DNA from: a virus
Taxonomy: Duplodnaviria > Heunggongvirae > Uroviricota > Caudoviricetes
Virus record (IMG/VR): IMGVR_UViG_3300023184_000047
Coordinates: 1-34,056 of that record
DNA length: 34,056 nt
Strand: one strand, 5' to 3'
This document shows, in pieces, positions 3-31,792 of this stretch (position 1 is its first letter; every line of letters begins with the position of its first letter). The position numbers and the translations under genes were made by a program. The notes below the pieces were generated by a model, which worked only from the letters and a program-made list of their open reading frames with translations, searched no databases and had not been told where the DNA came from.

Positions 3-236
3 GATCATACCTATCTTATTGCTGAAGATGATCCTTTCCTCCCAAAAGCAATGGAAATGTTTTGGACAGGTATAGTCCAACTAAGAGTAATACCAGCTAC
101 AGGAGCAGAACAATTTGCTAAATTTATTTACGAAAAAGTATCTGAATTTATTAAAATAGAAACAGAAGGAAGAGTAAGAGTAGTGAGCGTAGAATTTAGA
201 GAACACGGTAAAAACTCAGCGATATATACAGAATAA
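3..236 (+). CDS. queD: QueD / 6-carboxy-5,6,7,8-tetrahydropterin synthase, 5'-truncated by the window edge
   Basis: Frame is open from base 3: DHTYLIAEDDPF...ATGAEQFAKFIY...VRVVSVEFREHGKNSAIY. The DH, T/A-E and V-x-E-x3-N-x-A-x-Y pattern is the QueD/PTPS C-terminal half; queC, queE and folE are nearby. Confidence 0.85.
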   Translation, partial: DHTYLIAEDDPFLPKAMEMFWTGIVQLRVIPATGAEQFAKFIYEKVSEFIKIETEGRVRVVSVEFREHGKNSAIYTE

Positions 237-237
237 T

Positions 238-489
238 ATGAAAAAAGTAATTAGATACACAGCATCATGGTGTGGACCATGTAAAGTATTTGCTCCTACA
301 TTTGATAAAGTAGCAGCAGAAACACCAGGAATACAATTTGAAACAGTTGATGTAGATTCAGGACATCAATCAATTACAGAATATGGTATTAGAAATGTAC
401 CTACAACTGTTGTAGTTGAAATAGATGGCACTATAAGAAAACAAAGTGGAAACATGAGTGCAGACGCATTAAAAACATTTATTGGATAA
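238..489 (+). CDS. trxA: Thioredoxin
   Basis: WCGPC active site, VDVD, and the GIRNVPT cis-Pro loop. Confidence 0.92.
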   Translation: MKKVIRYTASWCGPCKVFAPTFDKVAAETPGIQFETVDVDSGHQSITEYGIRNVPTTVVVEIDGTIRKQSGNMSADALKTFIG

Positions 490-1277
490 TGAAGATATCT
501 CACGAATTACCACTTAGCCTACTAGAATATAGTATGGGTTGGAATGATTATGAATATTGTTTACCCCACTTGCTGGACAAACATGCCGACTATAGACAGT
601 ATTTCTTAGACTCTAGAGAACGAGAGAGATTTATTATCATGGATAATGGATTATTTGAAGGAGTAACACATACTACTCAAGATTTATTAGACAAAATCAA
701 CCTTATCCAACCAGATATCTTTATTGTTCCGGATGAGTGGAATAACAAAGCAATAACTGCTAAAAATGCTAAACATTGGTTACAATATGAGTTACCTGAA
801 CGTACTAATTTAATGGTAGTAATGCAAGGTACAACTATAAGTGAGATGCATCAATTATATCAACAGTGTATCGATCTAGGTTATACCCACTTTGCATTCA
901 ATCACTCTTCAGTATTATACCATGAACTATGCCCTACAGAAAATTTAACAGCAAATCAAGCTGTTGGTAGAGTATTGCTTTTAGAGAATATGAAGAATGA
1001 AAATTTAATCAAATCACACCACTACATCCACCTACTGGGATGTTCAGTACCTCAGGAATTTACTCATTATAGAGATAACTGGGAACCTGGAATAATTGAT
1101 TCAGTCGATACTTCAAACCCAATTATATGTGGTGCTTTAGGTATTAAATATGGTGAGATTGGATTGCTAGAAAAACCATCAAATAAAATTGAAGAATTTA
1201 TGGAAAAAGATTTGGAAAAGCAATTAGAAGATATTAAATTTAATGTAGAGAGATTTAAAAGATTTTGCAACAAATAA
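489..1277 (+). CDS. TGT/DpdA-like TIM-barrel transglycosylase (putative 7-deazaguanine inserting enzyme)
   Basis: TGT-fold motifs in the expected order: IMDNGLFE, IVPDE, VVMQG, HLLG, SVDTS. Located between queD and queC. Confidence 0.7.
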   Translation: MKISHELPLSLLEYSMGWNDYEYCLPHLLDKHADYRQYFLDSRERERFIIMDNGLFEGVTHTTQDLLDKINLIQPDIFIVPDEWNNKAITAKNAKHWLQYELPERTNLMVVMQGTTISEMHQLYQQCIDLGYTHFAFNHSSVLYHELCPTENLTANQAVGRVLLLENMKNENLIKSHHYIHLLGCSVPQEFTHYRDNWEPGIIDSVDTSNPIICGALGIKYGEIGLLEKPSNKIEEFMEKDLEKQLEDIKFNVERFKRFCNK

Positions 1278-1293
1278 AAACAAAAATAAAGTT

Positions 1294-1437
1294 ATGAGTA
1301 AAACATCTTCAAAAAGTAAGTACGAGCAACTAATGGTATGGTTACCCACATTAGGACAATCTAAAAATTCTAAAGTAGAAAAACAGTCTACTAAATTCTC
1401 TAAAGGAGATTATTATAAACAACAAGGAGTAAAGTAA
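1294..1437 (+). CDS. Small basic hypothetical protein, 47 aa (not in ORF track)
   Basis: MSKTSSKSKYEQLMVWLPTLGQSKNSKVEKQSTKFSKGDYYKQQGVK*, with an A-rich leader (AAAATAAAGTT-ATG). It fills the gap between genes exactly. Confidence 0.7.
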   Translation: MSKTSSKSKYEQLMVWLPTLGQSKNSKVEKQSTKFSKGDYYKQQGVK

Positions 1438-1439
1438 TC

Positions 1440-1583
1440 ATGTTTGAAATCATAAAACATAGTTTAGGACTGTGTGGTGAAGGTCATATTAGTCTTTTAA
1501 ATTGTTCTCCGTTTGTTGTTGGAGGAGTAGGATATTTTACGTATATTAAATCAAAATTAAAATTATGGAAAACCAAGAATTAA
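1440..1583 (+). CDS. Small His/Cys-motif putative membrane protein, 47 aa (not in ORF track)
   Basis: MFEIIKHSLGLCGEGHISLLNCSPFVVGGVGYFTYIKSKLKLWKTKN*. It starts 2 nt after the previous stop; a hydrophobic segment is followed by a basic tail. Confidence 0.65.
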   Translation: MFEIIKHSLGLCGEGHISLLNCSPFVVGGVGYFTYIKSKLKLWKTKN

Positions 1584-1795
1584 AACCATACATGATGTCA
1601 CTTTATGAGTATTTAGGTTATGCTGCTGGTACTGAAACGGGTAAAGAAGTGTATGATACAGCAAATAAATTACGCGAAACTATTAAAACTCAAAATGTTT
1701 CTAACCCTAAATATACTGGGAAAGTAATGTTATATCGTAGAGAATTCTTAGATGAATATTTTGGAAATAAAGTATACGAAGGAGAGAAAAAATAA
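1565..1795 (+). CDS. Hypothetical protein, 76 aa
   Basis: ORF track; codon usage like neighbouring genes; SLYEYLGYAAG segment. Confidence 0.75.
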   Translation: MENQELKPYMMSLYEYLGYAAGTETGKEVYDTANKLRETIKTQNVSNPKYTGKVMLYRREFLDEYFGNKVYEGEKK

Positions 1796-1846: not shown

Positions 1847-2764
1847 ATGTCTAAAAAACATGTTGTAGTATCCTTAAGTGGAGGAATGGACAGTAGCACA
1901 CTATTGCTTAGATGTCTAAAAGAGTATGATAGTGTAACAGCTATTTCATTTGACTATGGTCAAAAGCACAGAGTAGAGCTAGAAAGAGCTCAATCATTAG
2001 TAAATTACTTGAATGGTAATGTTGAAAAAACAGAACAAGATCAATTAGGTACAATCACAGTAGTAGGAAAAAACTACAATGAAATTAATTATCGTCAAAT
2101 CCAATTAAACGGATTAGTTGATCTATTAGATTCAGCTTTAGTAACAGGAGGTGAAGATGTACCTGAAGGTCACTATGCAGAAGATAATATGAAAGCAACA
2201 GTTGTTCCTAACAGAAACAAAATATTTGCTTCCATTACTCAAGCAGTAGCTTTATCAGTTGCAAATCGTACAGGAGAGACTTGTGATATTGCTTTAGGCA
2301 TTCATGCTGGGGATCATGCTATTTATCCGGACTGCAGACAAGAATTTAGAGATGCAGATGATGCAGCTTTTAGAATTGGAAACTGGGAAGCAGAAAGAGT
2401 AGGATACTTTACACCTTACTTAGAAGGAGATAAATTTACTATCTTACAAGACGGAGAAGTATTATGTGAAGAATTAGGATTAGATTTTGATGAAGTTTAC
2501 AGAAGAACTAATACTTCTTACAAACCAATTCAACTACTAGTAGAGGGAGTTAACAAAGTGAAGATAAACGATAAGGAAACTCGTTATGAACCTAAATTTG
2601 AATGGTTCTCAGATTATAAATCAGCTTCATCAGTTGAGAGAGTAGAAGCATTTATCAAGTTAGGAAGAAAAGATCCAGCTCCTTATGCAGACGAAACAGG
2701 ACCAGTAACATGGGAACATGTAGTAACAGAAGTAACAAAAGTATTAGAAAACCATAACAAATAA
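1847..2764 (+). CDS. queC: 7-cyano-7-deazaguanine (preQ0) synthase QueC, Zn-ligand-free type
   Basis: SLSGGMDS PP-loop, FDYGQKH, TVVPNRN, GIHAGDHAIYPDCR, C-terminal VERVEAF. Confidence 0.95.
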   Translation: MSKKHVVVSLSGGMDSSTLLLRCLKEYDSVTAISFDYGQKHRVELERAQSLVNYLNGNVEKTEQDQLGTITVVGKNYNEINYRQIQLNGLVDLLDSALVTGGEDVPEGHYAEDNMKATVVPNRNKIFASITQAVALSVANRTGETCDIALGIHAGDHAIYPDCRQEFRDADDAAFRIGNWEAERVGYFTPYLEGDKFTILQDGEVLCEELGLDFDEVYRRTNTSYKPIQLLVEGVNKVKINDKETRYEPKFEWFSDYKSASSVERVEAFIKLGRKDPAPYADETGPVTWEHVVTEVTKVLENHNK

Positions 2765-3730: not shown

Positions 3731-3825
3731 AGTCAGGTGGCGGAATGGTAGACGCTAAAGAGTCAAAGAGTCGTGCTTCTAAACTCTGAGGTAACACCAT
3801 ACAGGTTCGAATCCTGTCCTGACTA
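3731..3825 (+). tRNA. tRNA-like gene 2 (Leu/Ser-type D arm, long variable arm) with aberrant anticodon arm
   Basis: Acceptor AGTCAGG/CCTGACT + A73; D arm GCG-GAATGGTAGA-CGC; same T-arm as gene 1; tandem AAAGAGTC x2; AGAGT/ACTCT stem with an 11-nt loop; GGT-AAC-ACC variable arm. No CCA. Confidence 0.75.
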
Positions 3826-3840
3826 CTATTTATACAAAAC

Positions 3841-4205
3841 GGGGATGACTGGTTTTGACAAGTTATAAGTAATTAATACAATTCAGCCCAGAGAGAGAAC
3901 TGGTAAAAACTAAGGTGAAATTAATAAATGGCAAAAACAATTCTCGTGTAGTGGCTCTAGGAGCAAACGCACAAATCGAAGCTAACATGAACAAAGTATT
4001 CTCTTTAATCGGAGAAGAAGTTGCTGTAGCAGCCTAAATTAAACAAGATTTCTTAGTTAGATTAAACTGAGTGGTGGTTTCGCTGGCTTAATTGTCGGCC
4101 CTAGAGTGCGCCTGTAGACTCTTTAAATAAGTATGGGGACAAAAGCTGTATAAAGTTGTATTGAAGAACATGGTTTGGACGCGGGTTCGACTCCCGCCAT
4201 CTCCA
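3841..4205 (+). ncRNA. ssrA: tmRNA (transfer-messenger RNA)
   Basis: 5' GGGGATGACTGGTTTTGAC and 3' GGACGCGGGTTCGACTCCCGCCATCTCCA. Acceptor GGGGATG/CATCTCC has the G3.U70 alanine determinant; internal ORF ends AVAA*. CCA not encoded. Confidence 0.95.
3930..4037 (+). other. tmRNA tag reading frame, (A)GKNNSRVVALGANAQIEANMNKVFSLIGEEVAVAA*
   Basis: Resume codon GGC follows AATAAAT; 35 sense codons to TAA 4035-37; C-terminal AVAA degron-like end. The resume point is inferred. Confidence 0.8.
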
Positions 4206-4232
4206 CTATTTTTAATTTTTAATTTAATCGTT

Positions 4233-7771: not shown

Positions 7772-8545
7772 ATGAAAAGAATAGAAGATTATAATAAAAC
7801 ACTTCCCGTTGTAGAGCTTTATACAGCTGTACAATCAGAAGGAAGTAGAGCAGGTTATCCAACAGTAGTAATCAGAACAACAGGGTGTACTCACAGATGT
7901 TGGTTTGGTGAAGGTGGATGGTGCGATTCTTGGTACACAAGTATCCATCCTGAGAAAGGGCATATTAGTTTCCAAGACATTATTAACATGTACGATGCAA
8001 ATCCTCACATCACAGAGATGATGTTAACAGGAGGATCACCAACTATGCACCCAGCATTAGTAAACGAACTAACACATTTTGCACATGAAAGAAAAATATT
8101 TATCACTATTGAAACTGAAGGAAGTCATTTTCTGGAGACTGACTATCCTATTAATTTACTTTCCATATCACCTAAGTTTAGTAATTCGGTTCCTAAAATC
8201 GGAGTACTTACTCCTCAAGGAGCGGTTACGGATGAGAAAATGATTACTCAACACAACAAGTTAAGACTTAATTATGATGCCATTTCAAAATCAATCTCTT
8301 ACCATTCTGATTATCACTTAAAACCAGTATGGGATGGAGAGGATCAAGAAGCATTAGCTGAAATTATGGCTTGCATTAAAATGTTAGACATTCCAGAAGA
8401 CAAAGTATGGTTCATGCCAGCAGGAGATTCAAGAGAAGCTTTATTCAAATCATATCCAAAAATGTTTGATTGGGTAAGAGATAATGGTTATAGATTGACC
8501 TGGAGACCTCACATCATTGCATTTGAAGATCAAAGAGAAGTATAA
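7772..8545 (+). CDS. queE: 7-carboxy-7-deazaguanine synthase QueE (radical SAM)
   Basis: LYTAVQSEGSRAGYPTVVIRTTGC, CTHRC...WCDS, LTGGSP, TIETEG, SISPK. Confidence 0.9.
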   Translation: MKRIEDYNKTLPVVELYTAVQSEGSRAGYPTVVIRTTGCTHRCWFGEGGWCDSWYTSIHPEKGHISFQDIINMYDANPHITEMMLTGGSPTMHPALVNELTHFAHERKIFITIETEGSHFLETDYPINLLSISPKFSNSVPKIGVLTPQGAVTDEKMITQHNKLRLNYDAISKSISYHSDYHLKPVWDGEDQEALAEIMACIKMLDIPEDKVWFMPAGDSREALFKSYPKMFDWVRDNGYRLTWRPHIIAFEDQREV

Positions 8546-8760
8546 TGAGATTAAAAGAAGCACATATGACAGAATTTGATTTACTAAATTCACTTTGGTG
8601 GTTATGGTGTAATCAAAAAATTAGTATAGGTGATGTAAAATTCTATGTAAAAGATTTGGATCTTGAATTAGACTTTATTACATTAGACGGATATAAATTT
8701 ATAAGTACAGATAAAAAAACAACTTATTCTTATGACAGAAAACAGAAAAAAGATTCATAA
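8545..8760 (+). CDS. Hypothetical protein, 71 aa
   Basis: ORF track; TAATG coupling with queE. Confidence 0.6.
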   Translation: MRLKEAHMTEFDLLNSLWWLWCNQKISIGDVKFYVKDLDLELDFITLDGYKFISTDKKTTYSYDRKQKKDS

Positions 8761-9427
8761 CGATTTAGAAATCGTTCCTGTAGGTTATGCAAACGGTGTA
8801 GCACCAGGTTTTCCATTTACCGAAAAAGAAAAACAATCTATGATTGAAGACGCTGCTAAGGCATATGGTAAATTCTTAGATGCATTAGGGTGTGATTGGA
8901 AAAACGATCCTAATAGTGATAACACTCCAATGAGAGTAGCTAAAGCCTATGTTAATGACTTATGGAAAGGTAGATATACAGCAATGTCTGAAATTACTTC
9001 ATTTCCTTCTGATGGTTATGATGGAATCGTAATTGAAAGAAACATTCCATTAACTTCAATGTGTTCACATCACCATCAAACCATTGGAGGAGTAGTTCAT
9101 ATTGGTTATGTAGTAGGTGAAAATGGTAGAGTAATTGGTTTATCCAAATTAAACAGAATAGTGGAACTATTTGGTAGAAGAGGAGCAATACAAGAACAAT
9201 TAACTTCTGCTATTCATAATGCAGTAGATAAAATTTGTGAAAACAATAGAGGTGTAATTGTAACTGTAGTAGGTACTCACAACTGTGTTTCATGTAGAGG
9301 AGTTAGACATCAAGGTGCTTCAATGGTTACAACTAAAGCAGCAGGTGTGTTTATGGAAAATGGGAATTTAGCTCGTGAAGAGTTTTTTGATTCAATCAAA
9401 ATTAATAACGGAACACACCCAGTATAA
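8732..9427 (+). CDS. folE: GTP cyclohydrolase I
   Basis: TPMRVAK, SMCSHHH, GLSKLNRIV, QEQLT, HNCVSCRGV. Confidence 0.96.
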   Translation: MTENRKKIHNDLEIVPVGYANGVAPGFPFTEKEKQSMIEDAAKAYGKFLDALGCDWKNDPNSDNTPMRVAKAYVNDLWKGRYTAMSEITSFPSDGYDGIVIERNIPLTSMCSHHHQTIGGVVHIGYVVGENGRVIGLSKLNRIVELFGRRGAIQEQLTSAIHNAVDKICENNRGVIVTVVGTHNCVSCRGVRHQGASMVTTKAAGVFMENGNLAREEFFDSIKINNGTHPV

Positions 9428-9828
9428 TGGCTCTAACAATAAATAATAAAATCTATTTAGATTGGGATGATGTTAATGATTTAGTTAATACTCTTTGTGA
9501 AAAAATCATCATTGATCTTCCTAATATTGATTCAATTTATGGTATTAAACGAGGTGGGTTAATCCCCGCCGTATTAATATCGCATAAATTAGGTTTACCA
9601 TGGTCTGACGTGATGTTACCTAATACATTAGTTATAGATGATATTGCTGATACCGGAGAAACATTAAAGAATACAATAGGTTGCTATACAGCAGTATTGC
9701 ATTATAAACCCCATACATCATGTTATATGCCTAATTTATGGGCGTATGTGCATGAAGGAGATGAATGGATTATTTATCCATGGGAACGAAAAGATTCACA
9801 ACCAATACAAGATTATTTAAACAAATAA
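9427..9828 (+). CDS. Type I purine phosphoribosyltransferase (Gpt/XGPRT-like)
   Basis: GIKRGGLIPA, PRPP-binding LVIDDIADTGETL, WIIYPWE. Confidence 0.88.
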   Translation: MALTINNKIYLDWDDVNDLVNTLCEKIIIDLPNIDSIYGIKRGGLIPAVLISHKLGLPWSDVMLPNTLVIDDIADTGETLKNTIGCYTAVLHYKPHTSCYMPNLWAYVHEGDEWIIYPWERKDSQPIQDYLNK

Positions 9829-9831
9829 ATT

Positions 9832-10356
9832 ATGATTACAAATCCAAAAGTACCTTTTATTGACGAGGTAGAAGAATTTAACACCGTAATGGGTAAACCA
9901 AACAACTATGAATCAACAATCCCCGAAAGAAAAGAATGGGAATTTGTATACAATTTCATCCTTGAGGAATTGGAAGAATATAGAGAAGCTTGCGAAAGAG
10001 GAGACATCGTTGAGGTTCTGGATGCTTTGTGCGATATTACTTATGTTTCCCTTGGGAACGGTGCTATGTTACATGGCCTTAAGGATAAGATATGGCCAGC
10101 ATATCAAGAGGTACAAGCATCAAATATGTCAAAAGCTTGCAAAACAGAAGACGAAGCTTTACAAACTGTCATTAAGAGAACGGTCGAACAAAATGAAGCA
10201 TGTCATCATGAAAAAGTTGGAGACTATTATATCGTCTATAGAACAAGAGATAGAAAAGTAATGAAAAATATCAATTACTTTAGACCAAATTTAAAACAAT
10301 TTTTTACAGACAAAGAAATTCAAAAATCACATTTAAAACAATTAACAGGAATCTAA
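9832..10356 (+). CDS. MazG-like / PRA-PH-family nucleoside triphosphate pyrophosphohydrolase
   Basis: EVEEFN, ILEELEEY, EVLDALCDITYV, EVQASNMSK. Confidence 0.85.
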   Translation: MITNPKVPFIDEVEEFNTVMGKPNNYESTIPERKEWEFVYNFILEELEEYREACERGDIVEVLDALCDITYVSLGNGAMLHGLKDKIWPAYQEVQASNMSKACKTEDEALQTVIKRTVEQNEACHHEKVGDYYIVYRTRDRKVMKNINYFRPNLKQFFTDKEIQKSHLKQLTGI

Positions 10357-10712: not shown

Positions 10713-11993
10713 ATGTCTGTTAAAAAGGTTTCGAAGGAACTAATATTTGTTCAAATAGCATCATATAGAGATCCTGAATTATTACCCACTATTAAAGATT
10801 GTTTAGCCAATGCTAAATATCCTGAAAATCTACGCATTTGTATTGCTTGGCAACACGCTGAAGAAGATACATGGGATAATTTAGATGATTATAAAAACGA
10901 TCCACGTTTTAAAATAATGGACATCCATTATAAAGATGCTAAAGGAGTATGTTGGGCTAGAAATAGATTACAAAGACACTATAACGGAGAAAAATACACA
11001 TTACATTTAGATTCTCATCACCGGTTCTCTAAGGACTGGGATGAGACCCTAATTAATATGCTAAAAAATCTCCAAAAGAAAGGTCATAAAAAACCACTAC
11101 TTACTGCCTATCTACCAGGATATTTCCCTAATAATGATCCTGAAGGGCGTAATAATGAAGTATGGTTTACCAATTGTGATAGATATATGCCTGAAGGGCC
11201 TATCTTTATTGCCCCTGGTCATGTACAAGATTGGGAAACTTTTAAAGAACCAATACCCGCTAGATTTTATTCAGGACATTTTGGGTTTACTTTAGGTGAA
11301 TTTACTCACGATGTACCTCACGACCCAGAACTTTATTTTCATGGGGAAGAAACATCTATATCTGCTCGAGCATTTACTCACGGATATGATTTATTTCACC
11401 CTCACATTCCTGTTATTTGGCATGAATACACTAGAGATGGAAAAAAACGCCATTGGGACGATCATCAATTTTCTCCATTAGATAAAGCTTCATTTAAAAA
11501 GTATAGAGCATTATTTGGTATAGACGGTGAAAGTAGAGAAGGTATGGATTTTGTCGGGTTTGATCTAGGAAAAGAACGTACATTAGCCGAATTTGAACGT
11601 TATATCGGAGTAGATTTTAAAGGTAAACGAATTCAAAAGCACACATCTGAACAAAAAATGCTTCCTATACCTGAAATGACAGAAGAAGAATGGGAATCAA
11701 ATTTTGTAAATCGTTTTAAATATTGTATTGATCTTTATAAACCCTCTGTACCTGATGAAGATTATGATTGTTGGGTAATAGCATTTAAAGATAAAGACGG
11801 TGTTGAGATAGCTAGAATGGATGCTGATATAAATGAAATCGCTCAAATTAAACAATCTAATCCTGGTGGTCACTTCTACAACATATGGAGAGAATTTGAC
11901 TGTTTAGAACACCCTAAAAGCTGGTTATTATGGCCACACAGCCCATCTAAAGAATGGGATCATGAAATTATACAAAATGAAATACCTTACTAA
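10713..11993 (+). CDS. Gnt1/GT60-like polypeptide GlcNAc-transferase, paralog 1
   Basis: IFVQIASYRD, GVCWARN, LDSHHRF, LTAYLP, FHGEE, WHEY. Confidence 0.85.
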   Translation: MSVKKVSKELIFVQIASYRDPELLPTIKDCLANAKYPENLRICIAWQHAEEDTWDNLDDYKNDPRFKIMDIHYKDAKGVCWARNRLQRHYNGEKYTLHLDSHHRFSKDWDETLINMLKNLQKKGHKKPLLTAYLPGYFPNNDPEGRNNEVWFTNCDRYMPEGPIFIAPGHVQDWETFKEPIPARFYSGHFGFTLGEFTHDVPHDPELYFHGEETSISARAFTHGYDLFHPHIPVIWHEYTRDGKKRHWDDHQFSPLDKASFKKYRALFGIDGESREGMDFVGFDLGKERTLAEFERYIGVDFKGKRIQKHTSEQKMLPIPEMTEEEWESNFVNRFKYCIDLYKPSVPDEDYDCWVIAFKDKDGVEIARMDADINEIAQIKQSNPGGHFYNIWREFDCLEHPKSWLLWPHSPSKEWDHEIIQNEIPY

Positions 11994-13279
11994 TGAAAAA
12001 ACCAAATAGTAGAAAAATATTTATTCATTTACCAGCATATAGAGAACCAGAATTAATTCCAACAATTAAATCGGCTTTAGAAAATGCTAAGTATCCAAAA
12101 CGTTTAGTATTTGGTATTTGTAGACAATTTAATCCTGAAGATGGGTTTGACAATATTGATGAGTATAGAGATGATAAACGTTTTAAAATTATAGATATAC
12201 CTTACGAGCAAGCTAAGGGATTACCTTATGCTCGTTATCAAATTAACACATTGTTAACTGATGAAGAATATATTTGTCAATTAGATTCACATCATAGATT
12301 TGCACAAGATTGGGACGTTACATTAATTGAAATGCACGATCAATTAAAAGCTAAAGGACATAAAAAACCTATATTAGCTGCTTATTTACCTTACTACAAT
12401 CCATTTAACGATCCTGCTGAACGTACTATGGAACCATGGCAACAAACATTTGCTTGTTTCTACCCTCACGGTACTATATTTATCCAACCTTCATTATTAC
12501 ACGGATGGGAAAATATGACTGAACCACCACCATCAAGATTCTTATCAGGGCATTTTAGCTTTGCTGATGGACATTGGGCTAAAACAGTTTTACATGATGC
12601 TGATATCTTCTTTAGCGGTGAGGAATTAAATTTAACTGTACGTTCTTATACTCACGGTTATGATATGTTCCACCCTCATAAATTAGTTATATGGCATGCT
12701 ACTATGAGAGAAGAACGTAGTGGTAAATTAGTGTGGGACGACCAATCTAAACGAGGTGAAGATTGGTGGACTCAACAAGATATCGCTAGATCTAAAATTA
12801 GACAGTTACTTCAAACCGAAGACAATGGGTTTGATTTAGGTGAATATGGTTTAGGAACAGAACGTACTTTAAGAGATTACGAAAAATATGCTGGTATACA
12901 CTTTAAAAATAGATCAGTACAAAAATATACTTTAGACCATAATTATCCTCCTAACCCATATTATTTAGATGATCAAGAATGGGAAAATTCATTTATGTTT
13001 TCCTTTTATCACTTAATCCAATTTAGTAAAGCTACATTTAAACATGATGATTATGATTTTTGGATTTGTGCCTTTGATGATGAAAATGGAGAGCCTATTT
13101 GGAGAGAAGATTACCAAGAACATCAAATCAGAAACATACTAAGTTCCCCAGGTGATTGGTATAGTGAAGAAAAATTCTTCCTAACTGAAAAAATTCCTAC
13201 TCGTTGGGTAGTTTGGGCACATAGTAAATCTCAGGGGTGGGTAGAGCGAATTGAAGAACAAGTTAATTATAAAAAATAA
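11993..13279 (+). CDS. Gnt1/GT60-like polypeptide GlcNAc-transferase, paralog 2
   Basis: IFIHLPAYRE, GLPYARY, LDSHHRF, LAAYLP, FSGEE; colinear with paralog 1. Confidence 0.85.
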   Translation: MKKPNSRKIFIHLPAYREPELIPTIKSALENAKYPKRLVFGICRQFNPEDGFDNIDEYRDDKRFKIIDIPYEQAKGLPYARYQINTLLTDEEYICQLDSHHRFAQDWDVTLIEMHDQLKAKGHKKPILAAYLPYYNPFNDPAERTMEPWQQTFACFYPHGTIFIQPSLLHGWENMTEPPPSRFLSGHFSFADGHWAKTVLHDADIFFSGEELNLTVRSYTHGYDMFHPHKLVIWHATMREERSGKLVWDDQSKRGEDWWTQQDIARSKIRQLLQTEDNGFDLGEYGLGTERTLRDYEKYAGIHFKNRSVQKYTLDHNYPPNPYYLDDQEWENSFMFSFYHLIQFSKATFKHDDYDFWICAFDDENGEPIWREDYQEHQIRNILSSPGDWYSEEKFFLTEKIPTRWVVWAHSKSQGWVERIEEQVNYKK

Positions 13280-13282
13280 ATA

Positions 13283-13981
13283 ATGGATCTAAATATATTA
13301 AAACCAAAAAATACTAATCATAAAAAAATTAGACTAGGTCCCCCAGAGGATGGGGGGTATGTAATGCCCGAAATTGTACTTGAAACTTGTACTGCTTTAT
13401 TTACATACGGAGTAGGAAATGAAATTCGATATGAATTAGAATTTGCTCAAAAATATAATAAACCTGTCCATATGTTTGATCATACAATAGGTAGAGAAAA
13501 CTATTCAATAAATGAACTTATACATTTCTATGCTGAAGGTTTAGGGTTTGAAGAAAAATGTAAAGATGTAATTGAACATTATGATGAATTAAAAATAGAA
13601 GGTGATATTTTTTTAAAAATTGATATTGAGGGCGCTGAATATGATTATTTGTTGCAAATTAATATTAAAAAAATAGCATCTTTTACAAATGGTATTAATT
13701 TAGAAATCCATTGGATAGATGATATTAATAATAGAAACAAACTTATTCAAGTATTGGATAGTTTAGCTCCTTATTTTACATTATGTCATATTCATGGAAA
13801 TAACTGGGGGGGTTTATGGCAATATAAAGGATTTGATATACCAAAAGTACTTGAATTATCCTTTATAAATAAAAAATTAGTAGAATTAGAAGAAGAAGAT
13901 AAACAAACTTACCCAATTAATGGGTTAGATGTAGCTAATAATCCTAATGTTCCTGATTATTTATTAACTTATATAAATTAA
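13283..13981 (+). CDS. FkbM/Methyltransf_22-like SAM methyltransferase
   Basis: RLGPPEDGGY, TYGVGNE, FLKIDIEGAEY, HIHGNN, ELSF. Confidence 0.8.
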   Translation: MDLNILKPKNTNHKKIRLGPPEDGGYVMPEIVLETCTALFTYGVGNEIRYELEFAQKYNKPVHMFDHTIGRENYSINELIHFYAEGLGFEEKCKDVIEHYDELKIEGDIFLKIDIEGAEYDYLLQINIKKIASFTNGINLEIHWIDDINNRNKLIQVLDSLAPYFTLCHIHGNNWGGLWQYKGFDIPKVLELSFINKKLVELEEEDKQTYPINGLDVANNPNVPDYLLTYIN

Positions 13982-14002
13982 TATTAATAAACTATAAAAA
14001 TT

Positions 14003-14812
14003 ATGAATCAAGTCGTAATAACACTTACCACTATCCCCTCTCGATTAATCCCTGAAGCTCTTGAACATGGAATTATAAGCAACATTAATTCATTGTTAAA
14101 TCAAGATTATGAAAATGAATATGAAATACATCTTAATGTACCTTCTATATTAAAACATACTGGTGAACCTTATATTATACCTGAAGAGATAAGAGAAATT
14201 GCAAATAATAATCCTAAATTTAAAATATTTGATAATCTAGAAGATTTAGGTCCTGTTACTAAATTAGCTCATACCTTAAAACGTATAACCAATCCCGAAA
14301 CAATTATAATTGTATGCGATGATGATCTAATCTACCATCCAGGTATGATAGCAGAACAAGTAAACAATCAACATAAATATCCTAATACCGCTGTAGGGTA
14401 TGATGGTTGTGGTGCCTTAGATCCTACTGTATTTGACGATGTAAGAAATCACTACGTAGTATCAATATTTAAAGATATAGAAGTAAATATGCTACAACAT
14501 TATAAAACTATATCATACAGACGTAGATTTTTTGAAGATGACTTCTTTACAGATTTTGCTCCTCACTCTTGGAATGATGATATAGCAGTATCAGCATATA
14601 TGGGTAAACAAGGGATTAAAAAATTAGTTACTCATTATACACATGAAGAGCCTTTATATACTATTGAAGAATGGAGAGCAAAAGGTGGTGTTACTACATT
14701 TCCTGTACTAGGACATACTTCTCATATTCGTGAAGAAGGATGTACATTGTATAGAGATAACCAAATAGATGACAATTACATGTACTTTCATAGAGCAGGA
14801 TATATAAGATAA
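14003..14812 (+). CDS. GT-A fold glycosyltransferase
   Basis: ITLTTIPSR, DLGPVTKL, IIVCDDD, NDD. Confidence 0.75.
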   Translation: MNQVVITLTTIPSRLIPEALEHGIISNINSLLNQDYENEYEIHLNVPSILKHTGEPYIIPEEIREIANNNPKFKIFDNLEDLGPVTKLAHTLKRITNPETIIIVCDDDLIYHPGMIAEQVNNQHKYPNTAVGYDGCGALDPTVFDDVRNHYVVSIFKDIEVNMLQHYKTISYRRRFFEDDFFTDFAPHSWNDDIAVSAYMGKQGIKKLVTHYTHEEPLYTIEEWRAKGGVTTFPVLGHTSHIREEGCTLYRDNQIDDNYMYFHRAGYIR

Positions 14813-14820
14813 TATATAAA

Positions 14821-16647
14821 ATGGGTATAATTATAAAAACAGAAGATACTGCTTTTAATTTAGAAAATATTAAATCTCAATTAAATAATCTAAACGCAGA
14901 TGAAAAAAATACTTTAATAGAGTATTTGTCTACTTCACAGTTAAACATAACAAATAATGATATAACATTAGTTACTGGACTTTGGGATATAGGTCGAGTA
15001 GGTAGAGATTTTAATCATTATATTGAACATTTTAAAAACTTCTTAGATATTCCTATGAAAATGTTTATATATGTTCCTAAAGATTTAGAGTATCTAGTTT
15101 GGGAAAAACGTTCCCGAGAAAATACACATGTTAGAATATTTGAATTAGAAGATATTAAAAATAACTTTTATGCTCCATTCTGGGATAAAACTCAAGAAAT
15201 TAGAACTAGCCCGGAATGGTTGGATCAAACTGGAGAACATGGGTGGTTACCTAATAGTCCTCAAGCATCCAATGAGTGGTATAATCCGATTGTGCAGTCA
15301 AAAATGTTTATGGTCCATGATGCTAAAGTTATGAATATATTTGATACTGACTATTTCTTATGGTTAGACGCGGGAATCAGCAATACAGTATATGACAAAT
15401 ATTTTAGTGATAATAAATGTTTAGATAAAATTACTCCATATTTAAGTACATTTTTATTTTTAAGTTATCCTTATCAAGCAAATGATGAAATCCATGGGTT
15501 TGATTTTAAAGCAATAAATAAATATGCTAGAGAAGAAGTAAAATATGTTTGTAGAGGTGGATTATTTGGAGGACATAAAGATTTCCTTTCCCAAGCCAAT
15601 GGAACCTACTACACATTACTCCAAGACACATTAAATTCAGGTTACATGGGTACTGAAGAGAGTATTTTTAGTATAATGGCACATTTAGAACCTCACATTT
15701 ATAGACGTTATGCTTTAGATGATAATGGTTTAATTGTAAAATTTATTCAAGCATTGTTAGATGATGAAGTAAAATTAGAAAATAGTAGTACCCGTGCTCA
15801 TGTTTTACCTAAAGGAACTTATACTCCACACAAAACCAAAACATCACTATATATGCTTACATTTAACTTCCCAGAACAAATAGAACATACTCTGAAAACA
15901 TGGGAAGAAAATTCAATGGATTGGCTTGAAAAACCCAGACTAATATTATTAGATAATTCAACGGATGAAGCTGCAAAAGAAGATAATAAATTAGTTGCTC
16001 ACCAATACGGGTTTGAATACATTTCATTAGAAGGAAACACAGGAATAAATGGTGGAAGATTATTTGCGGCTAAACATTTTGATGAATCTGATAGTGATTA
16101 TTATTTTTTCTTTGAAGACGATATGGGGTTAAACCCGGCAAGTGATTCGGGCTCATGTAGAAACGGATTTAAAAATCATATTCCTAATCTATATAGATAC
16201 GTTCATGAAATAATGGCTCGAGAAGATTTTGATTTTTTAAAATTATCATTTACAGAAGTATACATGGATAATAATATCCAAGTATCATGGTATAATGTAC
16301 CTCAAGAATTTAGAAGTTTCCTTTGGCCCGATTATGATCAACTACCAGTTTCTGGTCTAGACCCATATGCTCCGAGAACCAAATTTGATAAGATAGAAGT
16401 CTACAATGGGGTATCGTATATTTCGGGAGAAATTTATTATTGTAACTGGCCTATGATTGTAAGCAGAGCAGGTAATAAAAAAATGTTTTTAGATGTAGAA
16501 TGGGCACACCCATATGAACAAACATGGATGAGCTACATGTTCCAAGAAACAGTTAAAGGCAACATCAAACCAGCAGTATTATTAGCTTCTCCTGTATGGC
16601 ATAATAGAATAGTTTATTATAAACCTGAAGAAAGACGTGAGAATTAA
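14821..16647 (+). CDS. HtrL/YibB-like domain fused to a C-terminal GT-A-like domain
   Basis: TLVTGLWDIGR, QSKMFM, FLWLDAGI, GGLFGG, MGTEES; then LLDNS...GR...FFFEDD. Confidence 0.7.
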   Translation: MGIIIKTEDTAFNLENIKSQLNNLNADEKNTLIEYLSTSQLNITNNDITLVTGLWDIGRVGRDFNHYIEHFKNFLDIPMKMFIYVPKDLEYLVWEKRSRENTHVRIFELEDIKNNFYAPFWDKTQEIRTSPEWLDQTGEHGWLPNSPQASNEWYNPIVQSKMFMVHDAKVMNIFDTDYFLWLDAGISNTVYDKYFSDNKCLDKITPYLSTFLFLSYPYQANDEIHGFDFKAINKYAREEVKYVCRGGLFGGHKDFLSQANGTYYTLLQDTLNSGYMGTEESIFSIMAHLEPHIYRRYALDDNGLIVKFIQALLDDEVKLENSSTRAHVLPKGTYTPHKTKTSLYMLTFNFPEQIEHTLKTWEENSMDWLEKPRLILLDNSTDEAAKEDNKLVAHQYGFEYISLEGNTGINGGRLFAAKHFDESDSDYYFFFEDDMGLNPASDSGSCRNGFKNHIPNLYRYVHEIMAREDFDFLKLSFTEVYMDNNIQVSWYNVPQEFRSFLWPDYDQLPVSGLDPYAPRTKFDKIEVYNGVSYISGEIYYCNWPMIVSRAGNKKMFLDVEWAHPYEQTWMSYMFQETVKGNIKPAVLLASPVWHNRIVYYKPEERREN

Positions 16648-24873: not shown

Positions 24874-26316
24874 ATGAAAGAAAATTACATCCCGCAGGGA
24901 CAACGAAAAAAAATCCTGTTATTATCTGATGACATCCGCACAACATCAGGAATAGCAACTATGGCTAGAGAAATTGTATTGGGAACATGTCATCACTACA
25001 ATTGGGTAAATCTGGGAGCTACAATTCAAAACCCCGATGAAGGTAAAAAATTAGACTTAAGTGAAGACTCTAACAGTTTTGCTCAAATTACTGATGCAAA
25101 TGTTACACTCTATCCTTCTTCAGGATATGGTACCATTGAAAGAATCAGAGATCTAATCCAGACAGAAAAACCAGACGCTATTATGTTATTTACGGATCCT
25201 CGTTATTGGGAGTGGTTATGGATGCATGAACGAGAAATACGCTCGCAAATTCCTATTTTATATCTTAACATTTGGGATTCTTTACCTTATCCACTTTATA
25301 ATAGAGGTTACTATGAATCGTGTGATTTATTAATGGCTATCTCAAAACAAACCGAAAATATTAATAGATCAGTATTAGGTAAAGCAGCTAATAGTAAAGT
25401 AATAGGATATGTTCCTCATGGTATTAATGAAGATGTATTTTTCCCTATCACTGAGGGAAATATAGGATGGAACGAGCTTCAAGAATTTAAAAAGAACTTA
25501 TTTGGGGATAAAGAATATGAATTTGTACTAATGTTTAACTCTAGAAACATCAGACGTAAATCTTTTCCAGATACATTACTAGCTTGGAAATTATTTGTTG
25601 ATAATCTCCCTGAAGATAAAAAAGATAAAGTAGCATTTATAGCTCATACTCAACCTATAGATGAAAATGGGACAGATATACCAGCAGTGATTGAAATGAT
25701 TTGGGGTAAAACACCACCAAATGTGTTTATTACTGGATTAAATAGGTTTATTCCTGAACAAATGAATTTATTATATAACTGTGCTGATGCTAGTATATTA
25801 ATATCTTCAAATGAAGGGTGGGGGTTATCTTTAACAGAAGCAATGATGTGTGGTAAACCTATTATTGCAAACGTAACTGGAGGTATGCAAGATCAAATGC
25901 GTTTTGAAGATGAAAATGGTGATTGGATTAAATTCACAGAAGAATTTGGATCAAATCATTTTGGAAAATACAAAAAATGTGGCGAATGGGCATTCCCCGT
26001 ATTTCCTAATAATATGAGTCTAATCGGCTCAGTACCAACACCTTATATATTTGATGATAGAGCAGATTTTAGAGACGCTGCTACTCAAATTCAAGCAATT
26101 TATGATTTAGATTCTAAAGAACGCAAACGTCTAGGAGAATCAGCACGTAAATGGACTTTATCGGATGAAGCTATGATGACTTCAACCAATATGGGTAAAA
26201 ATGTTATTAAATATATTGATCAAACATTTGATACTTGGATACCAAGAAAATCCCATGACTTTATTAAAATAGAAGAATTATCTGCAAAACAAAATAAAAC
26301 TATAATTTCGTTATGA
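24874..26316 (+). CDS. GT-B (GT4-like) glycosyltransferase
   Basis: SGIATMA, VPHG, RNIRRK, EGWGLSLTEAM, GGM. Confidence 0.88.
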   Translation: MKENYIPQGQRKKILLLSDDIRTTSGIATMAREIVLGTCHHYNWVNLGATIQNPDEGKKLDLSEDSNSFAQITDANVTLYPSSGYGTIERIRDLIQTEKPDAIMLFTDPRYWEWLWMHEREIRSQIPILYLNIWDSLPYPLYNRGYYESCDLLMAISKQTENINRSVLGKAANSKVIGYVPHGINEDVFFPITEGNIGWNELQEFKKNLFGDKEYEFVLMFNSRNIRRKSFPDTLLAWKLFVDNLPEDKKDKVAFIAHTQPIDENGTDIPAVIEMIWGKTPPNVFITGLNRFIPEQMNLLYNCADASILISSNEGWGLSLTEAMMCGKPIIANVTGGMQDQMRFEDENGDWIKFTEEFGSNHFGKYKKCGEWAFPVFPNNMSLIGSVPTPYIFDDRADFRDAATQIQAIYDLDSKERKRLGESARKWTLSDEAMMTSTNMGKNVIKYIDQTFDTWIPRKSHDFIKIEELSAKQNKTIISL

Positions 26317-27611
26317 GTAAACCAATTTGTATAGTAAGCTGTCCTATTGACACATTTAGTGGATACGGAGCTAGATCACGTGATTTTGTAAAGTCACTTA
26401 TTGCCTCTAAAGGTGAGGAATGGGATATTAAAATATTATCCCAAAGATGGGGACAAACCCCGTTTGGAGCATTAGATGAAAATATTCCTGAAGAAAAAGA
26501 TTTAAAAGATAGAATAGTAGGGGCTTTAACTATGAATCTTTCCCAACAACCTGAAGTTTGGATTCAAATCACAGTACCAAATGAATTCCAACCAGTAGGA
26601 AAATTTAATATAGGAGTAACAGCAGGTATAGAAACTACAGTTTGTGATCCTAGTTGGATTGAAGGATGCAATAGAATGAATTTAACGCTAACATCATCAG
26701 ATCACTCTAAAAAAGTATTCCAAGCTAGTCGATTTGAACAACGAAACCAAACGGGACAAGTTATTGGAGCCATTGAATTAAAAACCCCGGTTGAAATTTT
26801 ATTTGAAGGAGCAGATTTAAGTAAGTATTTTAAAACTACAGAAAAATTAGATTATGATGTGTGTAAAGATTTAGATACAATTCCTGAAAATTTCTGTTAT
26901 CTGTTTGTAGGACATTGGCTTCAAGGTGAATTTGGAGAAGATAGAAAAAATGTTGGTTACACTATAAAAGCATTTTTAGAAGTATTTAAAAATAAGAAAA
27001 ATAAACCTGCTTTAATATTAAAAGTATCTCACGGTGCTACTTCTATTCTGGATAGAGATAAAATTTTAAAAAGAATAGATGATGTTAGAAAAACAGTATC
27101 CGGTAAAAATTTACCTAATATTTACGTAATACACGGCGATTTAAGCGACAATGAAATAAATGCCATATACAATCATTCAAAAGTAAAGGCAATGGTTAAT
27201 CTCACAAAAGGTGAAGGATTTGGAAGACCTTTATTAGAATTTAGTATTGTTGGAAAACCTATTATTGCTTCTGGTTGGAGTGGTCATATTGATTTCTTAC
27301 CTTTAGAATTCACAGGTTTGGTTGGTGGTACATTAAATAATATACATCCAAGTGCTCATGTCCCTAATGTAATATTAAAAGAAAGTCAATGGTTTAAACC
27401 GGATGACAATCAAGTAGGACATGCTTTTACTGATATGTTTGAAAAATATAAAGATTATCAAGAAAAAGCAAAACGTCTTGCATTTAGAAACAAACAAAAT
27501 TTCTCACTAGATAAAATGACTGAAACTCTAAATAAATTACTAGCACAACACACCCCAGAATTCCCAAAACATGTTGAACTTAAATTACCAAAATTAAATA
27601 AAATTAAATAA
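26313..27611 (+). CDS. GT-B (GT4-like) glycosyltransferase
   Basis: SGYG, RKN, GEGFGRPLLE, SGH. Confidence 0.88.
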   Translation: MSKPICIVSCPIDTFSGYGARSRDFVKSLIASKGEEWDIKILSQRWGQTPFGALDENIPEEKDLKDRIVGALTMNLSQQPEVWIQITVPNEFQPVGKFNIGVTAGIETTVCDPSWIEGCNRMNLTLTSSDHSKKVFQASRFEQRNQTGQVIGAIELKTPVEILFEGADLSKYFKTTEKLDYDVCKDLDTIPENFCYLFVGHWLQGEFGEDRKNVGYTIKAFLEVFKNKKNKPALILKVSHGATSILDRDKILKRIDDVRKTVSGKNLPNIYVIHGDLSDNEINAIYNHSKVKAMVNLTKGEGFGRPLLEFSIVGKPIIASGWSGHIDFLPLEFTGLVGGTLNNIHPSAHVPNVILKESQWFKPDDNQVGHAFTDMFEKYKDYQEKAKRLAFRNKQNFSLDKMTETLNKLLAQHTPEFPKHVELKLPKLNKIK

Positions 27612-29278: not shown

Positions 29279-29929
29279 ATGGCAAATGGAATATATAAAA
29301 TAACAGAGGATTTTGAAAAAGCATTAGCTGACTATACAGGAGCAAAATATGTAGTTACTTTAGATAATATGAGTAATGCATTGTTTTTAGCATTATATTA
29401 TGAACATTATATAAAAAAAAGCATAACATCTCCAACAATAAAAATCCCTAACAGAACCTACCCCTCAGTACCCTGCGAAATTATCCATGCTGGTTTAAAG
29501 GTAGAATTTGAGATTGTTAATGGAAAAACTATAAGAGGAGCCTATAATTTAAAGGGAAGTAACGTTTGGGACTCTGCTTTATCTTTTACAGCAGATATGC
29601 ACAAACCAAATACGCATATGTGTGTTTCATTTACTGGTCCTTATAAGCATTTTAAATTATCAAAAGGAGGAGCAATATTAACAGATGATTATGATGCTTA
29701 TCTTTGGTTTAAAAGAGCAAGGTATAGCGGAAGACGTGAATGTTCATATCATGATGATAATCTAGATATGCTAGGATGGAATTTTTACATGATGCCTGAA
29801 TTAGCAGCTCGAGGAATACTATTAATGAACCAATTTTATAACATAGACGGAAGTAAAAAACATAACCCCGATCTAGAATTACCCTACCCCGATTTATCTA
29901 AATTTAAAATATATACTAACTCTAATTAA
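29279..29929 (+). CDS. Short DegT/DnrJ/EryC1/StrS-family PLP aminotransferase
   Basis: FEKALADYTGAKY, TYPSVP, DSA, SFTGPYKHF..SKGGAI; 216 aa. Confidence 0.8.
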   Translation: MANGIYKITEDFEKALADYTGAKYVVTLDNMSNALFLALYYEHYIKKSITSPTIKIPNRTYPSVPCEIIHAGLKVEFEIVNGKTIRGAYNLKGSNVWDSALSFTADMHKPNTHMCVSFTGPYKHFKLSKGGAILTDDYDAYLWFKRARYSGRRECSYHDDNLDMLGWNFYMMPELAARGILLMNQFYNIDGSKKHNPDLELPYPDLSKFKIYTNSN

Positions 29930-29931
29930 TT

Positions 29932-30540
29932 ATGAAAAACTTATTTGAATGGCCAAACCAAAAACCCAATGTACCTCAGAGTGGCCACCATTGGTGTCAT
30001 GAAACCAATGCAACTGTTTTACAACAGATGATAGCTCATATGAATCCTAAATTTATCCTAGAATTAGGTAGTTGGACGGGTGCTGGTTCTACAACACTTA
30101 TAGCAAATAATGCACCTAATGCTCAAATTATTTGTGTAGATCATTGGAGTAAAGATCTAAATGATTTTGTTCAAGATGAATGTGGTTTAGAACAATTAAA
30201 AGAATTTGAACCCCAAATTGAAGTATTATGGGAAACTTTTTTAGTTAATATGTGGGAACACAAACACCATGTTACTCCACTCAGAGCTACAACTAAAGAA
30301 GGTTTAAAAACTCTTAGTACTTTAAATATACCTTTTGATATAATATATATCGATGCTCACCACGATTATGCTCCCGTAAAACTAGATATAGAAATGTCCC
30401 ATAAAAATTGGCCAAACGCTACTATTATAGGAGATGATTATAGTTGGAAAACTGTAAGTAAAGCTGTTCATGATTATGCTGATGAAAATAATTTAAAAGT
30501 AGAAACTCATGGGAACTGTTGGTGGTATTTAATTAATTAA
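29932..30540 (+). CDS. Class I SAM methyltransferase (Methyltransf_24-like)
   Basis: LELGSWTG, CVDHW, IYIDAHHDY, GDDY. Confidence 0.85.
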   Translation: MKNLFEWPNQKPNVPQSGHHWCHETNATVLQQMIAHMNPKFILELGSWTGAGSTTLIANNAPNAQIICVDHWSKDLNDFVQDECGLEQLKEFEPQIEVLWETFLVNMWEHKHHVTPLRATTKEGLKTLSTLNIPFDIIYIDAHHDYAPVKLDIEMSHKNWPNATIIGDDYSWKTVSKAVHDYADENNLKVETHGNCWWYLIN

Positions 30541-30541
30541 A

Positions 30542-31117
30542 ATGAAAAGAGCATTAATAGGTTATGGAGGTCATGCTCGAGAAGTATTGGCCCAAATGGG
30601 AGAAAACATTCCCTGCTTTGTAGATGATCAGTATATAACAAAAGATACTTTTTCCTTATCTTCTTTTGATCCTACAGAATATGAAGTATTAGTAGCAGTT
30701 GGATCTTCCAAAGATAGATATGATATTGTACAAAAACTTCCTAAAGAAACTAAATACTTTACTTTTATACACCCCACAGCACTTATAGCAGGTGATGTTG
30801 AAATAGGAGAAGGCAGTTTTATAGGAGCTTATTCAATATTAACTACTAATATTAAAATAGGTAAACATACTTTACTAAACAGAGGAAATCAAATTGGACA
30901 TGACACTACAATAGGAGACTACTTCAGCGCTATGCCCGGAGCTATCGTATCTGGAAATGTAACAATATATGATTTAGTGTATATGGGTACTAATTCATCA
31001 ATAAAAGAAAAAATATCAATCCATAGTTTATCTACAATTGGTTCTAATGCTGCTGTAGTAAAACATATTAAGGAATCAGGTACATATGTTGGTGTACCTG
31101 CTAAAAAAATAACATGA
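30542..31117 (+). CDS. PglD/NeuD-like sugar acetyltransferase (hexapeptide repeats)
   Basis: IGYGGHARE, IHPTA, [IV]G hexapeptide repeats, GHD, VGVPAK. Confidence 0.9.
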   Translation: MKRALIGYGGHAREVLAQMGENIPCFVDDQYITKDTFSLSSFDPTEYEVLVAVGSSKDRYDIVQKLPKETKYFTFIHPTALIAGDVEIGEGSFIGAYSILTTNIKIGKHTLLNRGNQIGHDTTIGDYFSAMPGAIVSGNVTIYDLVYMGTNSSIKEKISIHSLSTIGSNAAVVKHIKESGTYVGVPAKKIT

Positions 31118-31791: not shown

Positions 31792-31792
31792 T

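Follow-up and report, generated by a model that had tools for sequence, protein, structure and literature searches.

What does a phage that carries its own route to 7-cyano-7-deazaguanine (preQ0) do with the base, and which of its enzymes puts the base to use? The question is raised by a 34,056-nucleotide stretch of the Caudoviricetes record IMGVR_UViG_3300023184_000047, hereafter the window, which comprises the first 34 kb of a linear 117.8-kb viral record estimated to be 71% complete. Beside genes of the preQ0 pathway, the window encodes a 262-residue protein with motifs of the tRNA-guanine transglycosylases (TGTs). The analysis presented here establishes the family membership, fold, catalytic-residue conservation and gene context of this protein, which we assign to the DpdA3 subfamily of the TGT superfamily. 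The base that it inserts is most likely preQ0, and we consider it probable that the resulting dPreQ0 in the phage genome shields the DNA from restriction enzymes. The gene and its proposed active site are as follows:

489..1277, + strand: DpdA3-subfamily 7-deazaguanine transglycosylase, 262 amino acids (aa); assigned by PHROG, tblastn, fold, conservation and tree, with the activity predicted
Predicted residue roles in this protein: D52, general acid/base; D82 and Q113, base binding; L183, base stacking; D207, nucleophile

Searched as a single sequence, the protein reached no Pfam family at E up to 1, and phmmer against the PDB returned chance matches only. It matches phrog_19058, a family of 'unknown function', over its whole length (E 6.6e-34), and its homologues number 1905 among 90%-identity clusters and 1269 clusters at 50% identity (E up to 0.001). 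For conservation analysis we aligned 117 homologues (29–87% identity). An initial annotation, made from sequence alone, had listed five motifs in the order of the TGT residues, and all five are found in the translation as D52-N-G, P81-D-E, M112-Q-G, H181-L-L-G and V206-D-T-S. Ten positions are invariant in all 117 homologues (D52, E57, D82, R161, H181, L183, G184, D207, P211 and N252), among them the Asp residues and the core of HLLG; judged by these invariant positions, the five motifs are not due to chance. Position 113 is Gln in 102 of the 117 sequences and His in the other 15; the equivalent residue is Gln in bacterial TGT and His in bacterial DpdA. The DSG motif of TGTs is replaced across the alignment, by DNS in 92 sequences and by DNG in 25, as is the Gly-rich β6 loop, which reads AFNHS in the query and AISF in the family consensus. 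A zinc site is absent, as the protein ends 55 residues past D207 and its C-terminal 48 residues contain one Cys and no His.

The fold was assessed next. An AlphaFold2 model built with the family alignment (mean pLDDT 97.7, pTM 0.93) is predicted to form an eight-stranded β/α barrel with a long terminal helix and no zinc subdomain. Foldseek against the PDB agrees with a TGT-type barrel, with all of the top 50 matches being tRNA-guanine transglycosylases or DpdA (E ~1e-6, probability 1.00). In an exhaustive VIA-align search of the model against 48,161 representative chains, first rank went to Pyrococcus horikoshii ArcTGT (Z 17.3, root-mean-square deviation (rmsd) 3.0 Å, 231 residues aligned), and the list also holds the DpdA of Salmonella Montevideo, 7UI4 (Z 16.9, rmsd 3.4 Å over 230 residues), Zymomonas mobilis TGT (Z 15.7) and QTRT2 (Z 14.8). 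These top matches (Z 14.8–17.3) align 227–233 residues. Unrelated TIM barrels score Z 12.9 or less, with the exception of PdxJ (Z 14.5). As modeled, the barrel is of the TGT type, 2–4 Z units above generic barrels.

Residue equivalences were examined by profile alignment, and those proposed in the initial annotation were supported wherever they could be tested, namely with the family hidden Markov model (HMM) against 7UI4 and with hhalign against phage 9g DpdA1 and E. coli TGT. The HMM aligns its HHLLG...IDTSNP stretch with residues 236–291 of the tagged 7UI4 chain. With a tag offset of 20, checked on Leu236, Asp256 and Phe265 as named in PMC10164549, L183 corresponds to the base-stacking Leu236 and D207 to the nucleophile Asp256; a second, weak segment pairs Q113 with His181. 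Moreover, F56 lies four residues past D52, as Phe99 does past Asp95 in DpdA. Against 9g DpdA1, hhalign pairs D52 with the LDSGAF Asp and D207 with CDSSS (probability 2.7%); against E. coli TGT it sets Q113 on IIQG, HLLG on YLMG and D207 on FDCV (probability 30%), these low probabilities reflecting the use of single sequences as templates. The PDE region missed the FDEC Asp of E. coli TGT by 7 residues, and the equivalence of D82 is therefore drawn from the 9g DpdA1 alignment and from its invariance. Within the PDB, the family HMM reached 7UI4 only at E 0.16, ranked under de novo TIM barrels; that alignment served solely for residue mapping, and the fold match provides independent support. Taken as alignments, these correspondences are of low probability, yet they agree among themselves and fit the fold match.

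To place the protein among known transglycosylases, 50,697 phage records were searched with tblastn, giving 18 full-length matches (E 5e-32 to 2e-30, 98–100% query coverage, 32–33% identity). Fourteen come from the CP220/CP21/CPt10 group of Campylobacter phages, in which it is listed as a hypothetical gene, and four from records of Flavobacterium phage vB_FspM_immuto (hereafter immuto), where it is annotated 'DNA guanine transglycosylase ... DpdA'. A loose threshold adds Cellulophaga phage phiST as a marginal match (21% identity, E = 1), and the phiST protein model in BFVD matches the query model at TM 0.87. The DpdA3 subfamily was defined by Hutinet et al. (NAR 2023) with phiST, CP220-group and immuto members (PMC10516641), and in these phages all G is replaced: by dADG in CP220, dDG in phiST and fdPreQ1 in immuto (PMC10516641). 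When phiST and Chryseobacterium phage MA9V-3 serve as the root of a maximum-likelihood tree (128 sequences), the clade of the query receives 100% support and branches deep within the radiation to which the immuto and CP220 DpdA3 proteins also belong. By this position among the phiST, immuto and CP220 proteins, the query is classed as a DpdA3, a new uncultured member of the published subfamily. The description of a compact, zinc-less TGT/DpdA paralogue in the initial annotation thus stands, but its suggestion of a possibly unclassified subfamily does not: tblastn, the phiST fold match and the tree all lead to a subfamily already defined, with the query nested among its members. Likewise, the oddities that it had listed (DNG for DSG, the AFNHS loop and the missing zinc extension) are real but not peculiar to this protein; DNG/DNS for DSG, the missing Gly-rich β6 loop and the missing zinc subdomain are traits of the DpdA3 subfamily as a whole.

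Which base the enzyme would insert depends on what the phage can make. FolE, QueD, QueE and QueC, which had been noted in the window, were verified with Pfam and PHROGs, QueD being present as its C-terminal 77 aa. These genes and the others near DpdA3 are:

3..236, + strand: QueD (6-carboxy-tetrahydropterin synthase), last 77 aa, the gene being truncated by the start of the record; PF01242 E 4.7e-6, phrog_2389 (QueD-like) E 2.5e-16, 83% identity to immuto QueD
238..489, + strand: thioredoxin, 83 aa; PF00085 E 5e-17, 42% identity to immuto gp22
1294..1437, + strand: small conserved open reading frame (ORF), 47 aa; 52% identity to immuto26A_21, in 18 related viral loci
1440..1583, + strand: small conserved ORF, 47 aa; 49% identity to immuto26A_24, in 32 related viral loci
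1565..1795, + strand: conserved 76-aa protein without Cys and without a Pfam/PHROG family; 57% identity to immuto26A_25
1847..2764, + strand: QueC (preQ0 synthase), 305 aa, with an internal insert; PF06508 E 1.8e-34, 89% identity to immuto QueC
7772..8545, + strand: QueE (7-carboxy-7-deazaguanine synthase, radical SAM); phrog_2076 E 5.5e-54, 94% identity to immuto QueE
8732..9427, + strand: FolE (GTP cyclohydrolase I); PF01227 E 5.8e-42, 62% identity to immuto FolE
9427..9828, + strand: phosphoribosyltransferase-like protein, 133 aa; phrog_8995 E 7.5e-14, PF00156 E 2e-6, 59% identity to immuto gp60
9832..10356, + strand: MazG/PRA-PH-type nucleoside triphosphate pyrophosphohydrolase; phrog_671 E 3.3e-28, PF01503 E 1.4e-8, 86% identity to immuto gp63

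As these identities show, the backbone of immuto is close to that of the window phage, from QueE at 94% and QueC at 89% through the MazG-like protein and QueD to FolE and the phosphoribosyltransferase at 59%; the two phages also share the small ORFs near thioredoxin and QueC. The DpdA3 of immuto_2-6A is of the same subfamily, fold and size (264 versus 262 aa) and has the same invariant residues, yet the two proteins are only 32% identical. Moreover, the genes differ in position: in the window phage DpdA3 has the thioredoxin gene on one side and the small ORFs that precede QueC on the other, whereas in immuto it follows the MazG gene and precedes DpdN, a kinase-like gene and QueF. Segments adjoining the catalytic residues read MDNGLFE, PDEWN, FAFNHS and IICGA here, against LDNSIFEL, PDALED, IAISFD and VVHGI in immuto, the immuto-type set as a whole having the consensus LDNSxFEL / PDALED / IAISFD / VVHGI. 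The immuto end product is a preQ1 derivative, whereas the window phage is predicted to stop at preQ0. A further difference is the polymerase, which is of family A and downstream of the deazaguanine cluster in immuto, and of family B in the window phage (16675-19260, PF00136/PF03104).

Searched with tblastn, the 117.8-kb record yielded nothing for immuto QueF, DpdN or the family A polymerase, and a single 29% match (TMPK-like, i.e. thymidylate-kinase-like) at ~111 kb for the immuto kinase-like gene. Neither the record nor four relatives that are 97–100% complete and possess QueC contain a match above cut-off to the QueF family PF14489; one weak match (18 bits) falls in a 234-aa frame of FolE size. 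A survey of 79 related viral loci, in which DpdA3 is 44–97% identical, found neither QueF nor DpdN within 10 kb, and the arrangement of DpdA3, 76-aa ORF and QueC is nearly universal among them. In the immuto-type section of the tree, by contrast with this clade, metagenomic DpdA3 genes adjoin Formyl_trans_N, AAA_28 and QueF. Three distant representatives lie on contigs that were too short for their gene context to be read. Since close backbones carry DpdA3 alleles that are 32% identical, together with the loss of QueF and DpdN, these data suggest that sub-clades of DpdA3 differ in the 7-deazaguanine substrate to which they are tuned; we infer from the immuto comparison that an allele swap accompanied the changed end product of the pathway. 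Two closely related phage backbones with DpdA3 alleles only 32% identical amount to a natural experiment, in which PDEWN, FAFNHS and IICGA, against PDALED, IAISFD and VVHGI, are the candidate specificity residues.

The mechanism can be outlined from TGT and bacterial DpdA. D207 would attack C1' of a guanine (deoxy)nucleotide and displace guanine, leaving a covalent glycosyl-enzyme intermediate on D207 as the base departs, with D52 acting as general acid/base. D82 and Q113 would read the Watson-Crick edge, with F56 and L183 packed against the two faces of the base. The intermediate would then be resolved by a 7-deazaguanine base that FolE, QueD, QueE and QueC of the phage provide. Because QueF, DpdN and Gat-QueC are absent, this base is most likely preQ0, and dPreQ0 in the genome would protect it against restriction enzymes, as has been shown for immuto, phiST and others (PMC10516641). 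From these comparisons we infer that the protein is active, which base it inserts, that DNA is its substrate and how far G is replaced. Our prediction that DpdA3 can use preQ0 runs contrary to the view of the paper that defined the subfamily.

Several points weigh against this proposal. The tests of DpdA3 activity made in E. coli by Hutinet et al. failed (PMC10516641); the same authors deem preQ0 insertion by DpdA3 unlikely, citing phiST and the Campylobacter phages, which lack QueC (PMC10516641). The QueC of the window is atypical, matching PF06508 at model positions 2–185 of 210 only and containing four Cys in all, so that it seems to lack the canonical zinc-binding Cys cluster at its C-terminus; the 89%-identical QueC of immuto must nevertheless work and deliver preQ0, because immuto makes a preQ1 derivative. 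R161 and K229 are the only basic residues conserved family-wide, and the protein is acidic (isoelectric point 5.3), which would be unusual for an enzyme gripping duplex DNA. Finally, with the record 71% complete, a QueF gene in the missing part is excluded solely through analogy to the complete relatives.

The alternatives concern the base, the substrate and the rank of the family. A base other than preQ0, such as 7-carboxy-7-deazaguanine (CDG) or 7-amido-7-deazaguanine (ADG), might be inserted, or preQ0 might be converted further by unrecognised enzymes, so that the final base would not be dPreQ0; we regard this as possible but doubtful. In no known DpdA3 phage is dPreQ0 the final base, which is dADG, dDG or fdPreQ1 instead (PMC10516641); the β6 loop, which in TGT recognizes the 7-substituent, is variable among DpdA3 proteins, the QueC is atypical, several conserved small ORFs separate it from DpdA3, and many glycosyl- and methyltransferase genes lie past the cluster. 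Set against this, neither QueF, DpdN, a DpdL-like second QueD nor an amidotransferase is found in the record or its complete relatives, the QueC is 89% identical to one that must deliver preQ0 to QueF, and the clade-specific signature fits adaptation to a substrate unlike that of immuto. Less likely still is that the same family and chemistry act before replication, on free guanine deoxynucleotides that feed a pool of 7-deazaguanine deoxynucleoside triphosphates. Here the MazG-like enzyme would hydrolyze dGTP to dGMP, on which DpdA3 would exchange the base; once re-phosphorylated by a kinase, the product would be built into DNA by the phage polymerase, in analogy to the dCTPase, dCMP hydroxymethylase and dNMP kinase route of T4. 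Such a route would account for the 100% G replacement in DpdA3 phages (PMC10516641), which is hard to achieve after replication, and the ADG nucleoside reported from CP220-infected cells also favors it (PMC10516641). It fits, too, with an acidic, bare barrel that has few conserved basic residues and no added nucleic-acid-binding domains, with the MazG-type pyrophosphatase and phosphoribosyltransferase adjoining FolE here and in immuto, and with the kinase-like genes that adjoin DpdA3 elsewhere (thymidylate kinase in CP220, a P-loop protein in phiST, AAA_28 in the metagenomic loci L091–L093). To our knowledge, however, all TGT-superfamily enzymes assayed to date work on polymer or protein and never on mononucleotides (see also PMC10164549). 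No kinase gene adjoins DpdA3 here, the sole TMPK-like match lying at ~111 kb of the record, and the phosphoribosyltransferase is equally explained by salvage of released guanine. Insertion after replication is also favored by Hutinet et al. (PMC10516641). In a broader form, which we likewise think unlikely, all DpdA3 enzymes may swap the base on free nucleotides, with the query clade as the preQ0-specific version. If nucleotide-level exchange were true, it would explain the 100% replacement of G, and these would be the first phage genomes in which dPreQ0 wholly replaces G.

The two remaining alternatives are far less probable. That the protein forms a separate subfamily beside bDpdA and DpdA1–4 is suggested by its 32–33% identity to named DpdA3 proteins (21%, E = 1, to phiST), by its own motif signature and by its differing gene neighborhood. 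We consider this very unlikely, as the query clade lies inside the immuto/CP220 radiation in the tree rooted on phiST and MA9V-3, and a single PHROG family by full-length match, the shared invariant residues and the TM of 0.87 to phiST all unite it with DpdA3. Least probable of all, and very unlikely, is that the protein acts as a tRNA-guanine transglycosylase on tRNAs of the phage or its host. Its TGT-type fold and catalytic residues would suit such a role and the phage carries tRNA-like genes, but there is no Pfam TGT match, no zinc subdomain and no C-terminal tRNA-binding domain; the full de novo pathway would be excessive for a few tRNA positions, and the closest characterised relatives come from phages with the base in DNA at 100%, not in tRNA (PMC10516641). 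We therefore judge DNA, as the initial annotation had favored, the likelier destination than tRNA.

A role like that of the TGT-like protein Cap10, in which a deazaguanine is conjugated to protein in type IV CBASS, was also considered (9ntn_B, Z 14.5). It was set aside because the annotated genes include no CD-NTase and a complete de novo pathway fits DNA-modifying phages.

The protein was also compared with other known systems. The DpdA3 of CP220, CP21 and CPt10 (gp056) is 33% identical over 98% of its length (E 5e-32 to 2e-30) and has the same catalytic residues. These phages have fully dADG-modified DNA and lack QueC according to Hutinet et al. (PMC10516641), and their DpdA3 adjoins a thymidylate-kinase-like gene and an HD/P-loop protein and forms a separate clade in the tree. 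The founding member, phiST DpdA3 (CGPG_00065 / gp042), is 259 aa long and retains the motifs DNG, Q-G and D-[ST]; its phage has fully dDG-modified DNA and possesses DpdL instead of QueC. S. Montevideo DpdA shares the TIM-barrel core, nucleophile Asp, base-stacking Leu and aligned HLLG motif, and its substrate is preQ0. It differs at 16% identity in having 413+ residues with DNA-binding insertions, in keeping the Gly-rich loop (G206, G207) and in requiring the ATPase DpdB (PMC10164549). No DpdB-like gene was seen among the annotated neighbors of the query, for which no search aimed at DpdB was made. Z. mobilis and E. coli TGT and P. horikoshii ArcTGT resemble the query in fold (Z 15.7–17.3) and catalytic motif order; they differ in their zinc subdomain, DSG motif, GGLAVGE loop and match to PF01702, at 12–15% identity. 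The query itself has no match to PF01702 (TGT), which is touched by two of the 117 homologues (best E 0.052). Nor does it match PF20314 (DUF6610), a family linked to DpdA4 and archaeal viruses; that 31 of the 117 homologues touch this family weakly (best E 2.3e-5) shows, at the level of profiles, an apparent kinship of DpdA3 and DpdA4.

With these data DpdA3 gains a large clade of Flavobacterium-type phages from freshwater, all uncultured, and the number of homologues and clusters found indicates that the subfamily is far commoner than would be judged from the few phages in culture. What the preQ0-only context and the clade-specific signature add to a known subfamily is modest, and the overall picture of phage 7-deazaguanine modification is unchanged. 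Some relatives broaden the family in other ways. In the metagenomic protein P0214 (447 aa), a DpdA3 domain (1–267) is fused to a DpdN-like Formyl_trans_N domain (343–436), joining the transglycosylase to a preQ1 formyltransferase. Other longer homologues contain homing-endonuclease motifs, and the longer homologues do not settle whether DNA or nucleotides are the substrate. Weak full-barrel tblastn matches (22–24% identity, E 0.02–0.1) occur in MH707430 (Bacillus phage BSP7), MW354676-8 (BSTP phages) and OM293949 (Weizmannia phage Youna2), in genes annotated as hypothetical or with unrelated names; they may represent unrecognised DpdA3-like genes of Bacillus-type phages. One JGI metagenome contig (L089, 6230-11895) encodes a DpdA3 homologue with His at the Q113 position, neighbored by QueC, GATase-like, thymidylate-kinase-like, dUTPase, type 2 GTP cyclohydrolase (PF02649) and QueD genes. 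This differing pathway make-up may lead to an amidated or amidino base.

Within the window, the DpdA3 ATG overlaps the stop of the upstream thioredoxin gene (TAATG, within positions 480-492), and the thioredoxin gene follows the 3' part of queD, for which reason the three genes look translationally coupled. The 76-aa ORF lies directly upstream of QueC in 64 of the 79 related loci, and in three where QueC and DpdA3 are ~8 kb apart (L031, L035 and L052) it moves with QueC and not with DpdA3; its product may be a QueC accessory factor. The phosphoribosyltransferase-like protein could serve in the salvage of released guanine or in ribosylation of the deazaguanine base. Directly past the MazG-like gene, the 10713-16647 stretch encodes two paralogous PF11397/GT2 glycosyltransferases (426 and 428 aa), together with FkbM-type methyltransferase-like, GT2 and HtrL_YibB+GT2 proteins, all of which precede the family B DNA polymerase. 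The first of these glycosyltransferases also trails the deazaguanine genes, at 94% identity, in three related loci (L009, L010 and L075). Further along, the 24874-27611 and 29279-34056 stretches contain two phrog_2170 glycosyltransferases and aminotransferase-like and methyltransferase-like genes amid replication genes, with a nucleotide-sugar epimerase gene at the window end. Between QueC and QueE, at 3731-4206, ARAGORN predicts a 96-nt 'tRNA-Phe' (anticodon AAA) and a 366-nt transfer-messenger RNA (tmRNA) with the tag peptide ANAQIEANMNKVFSLIGEEVAVAA.

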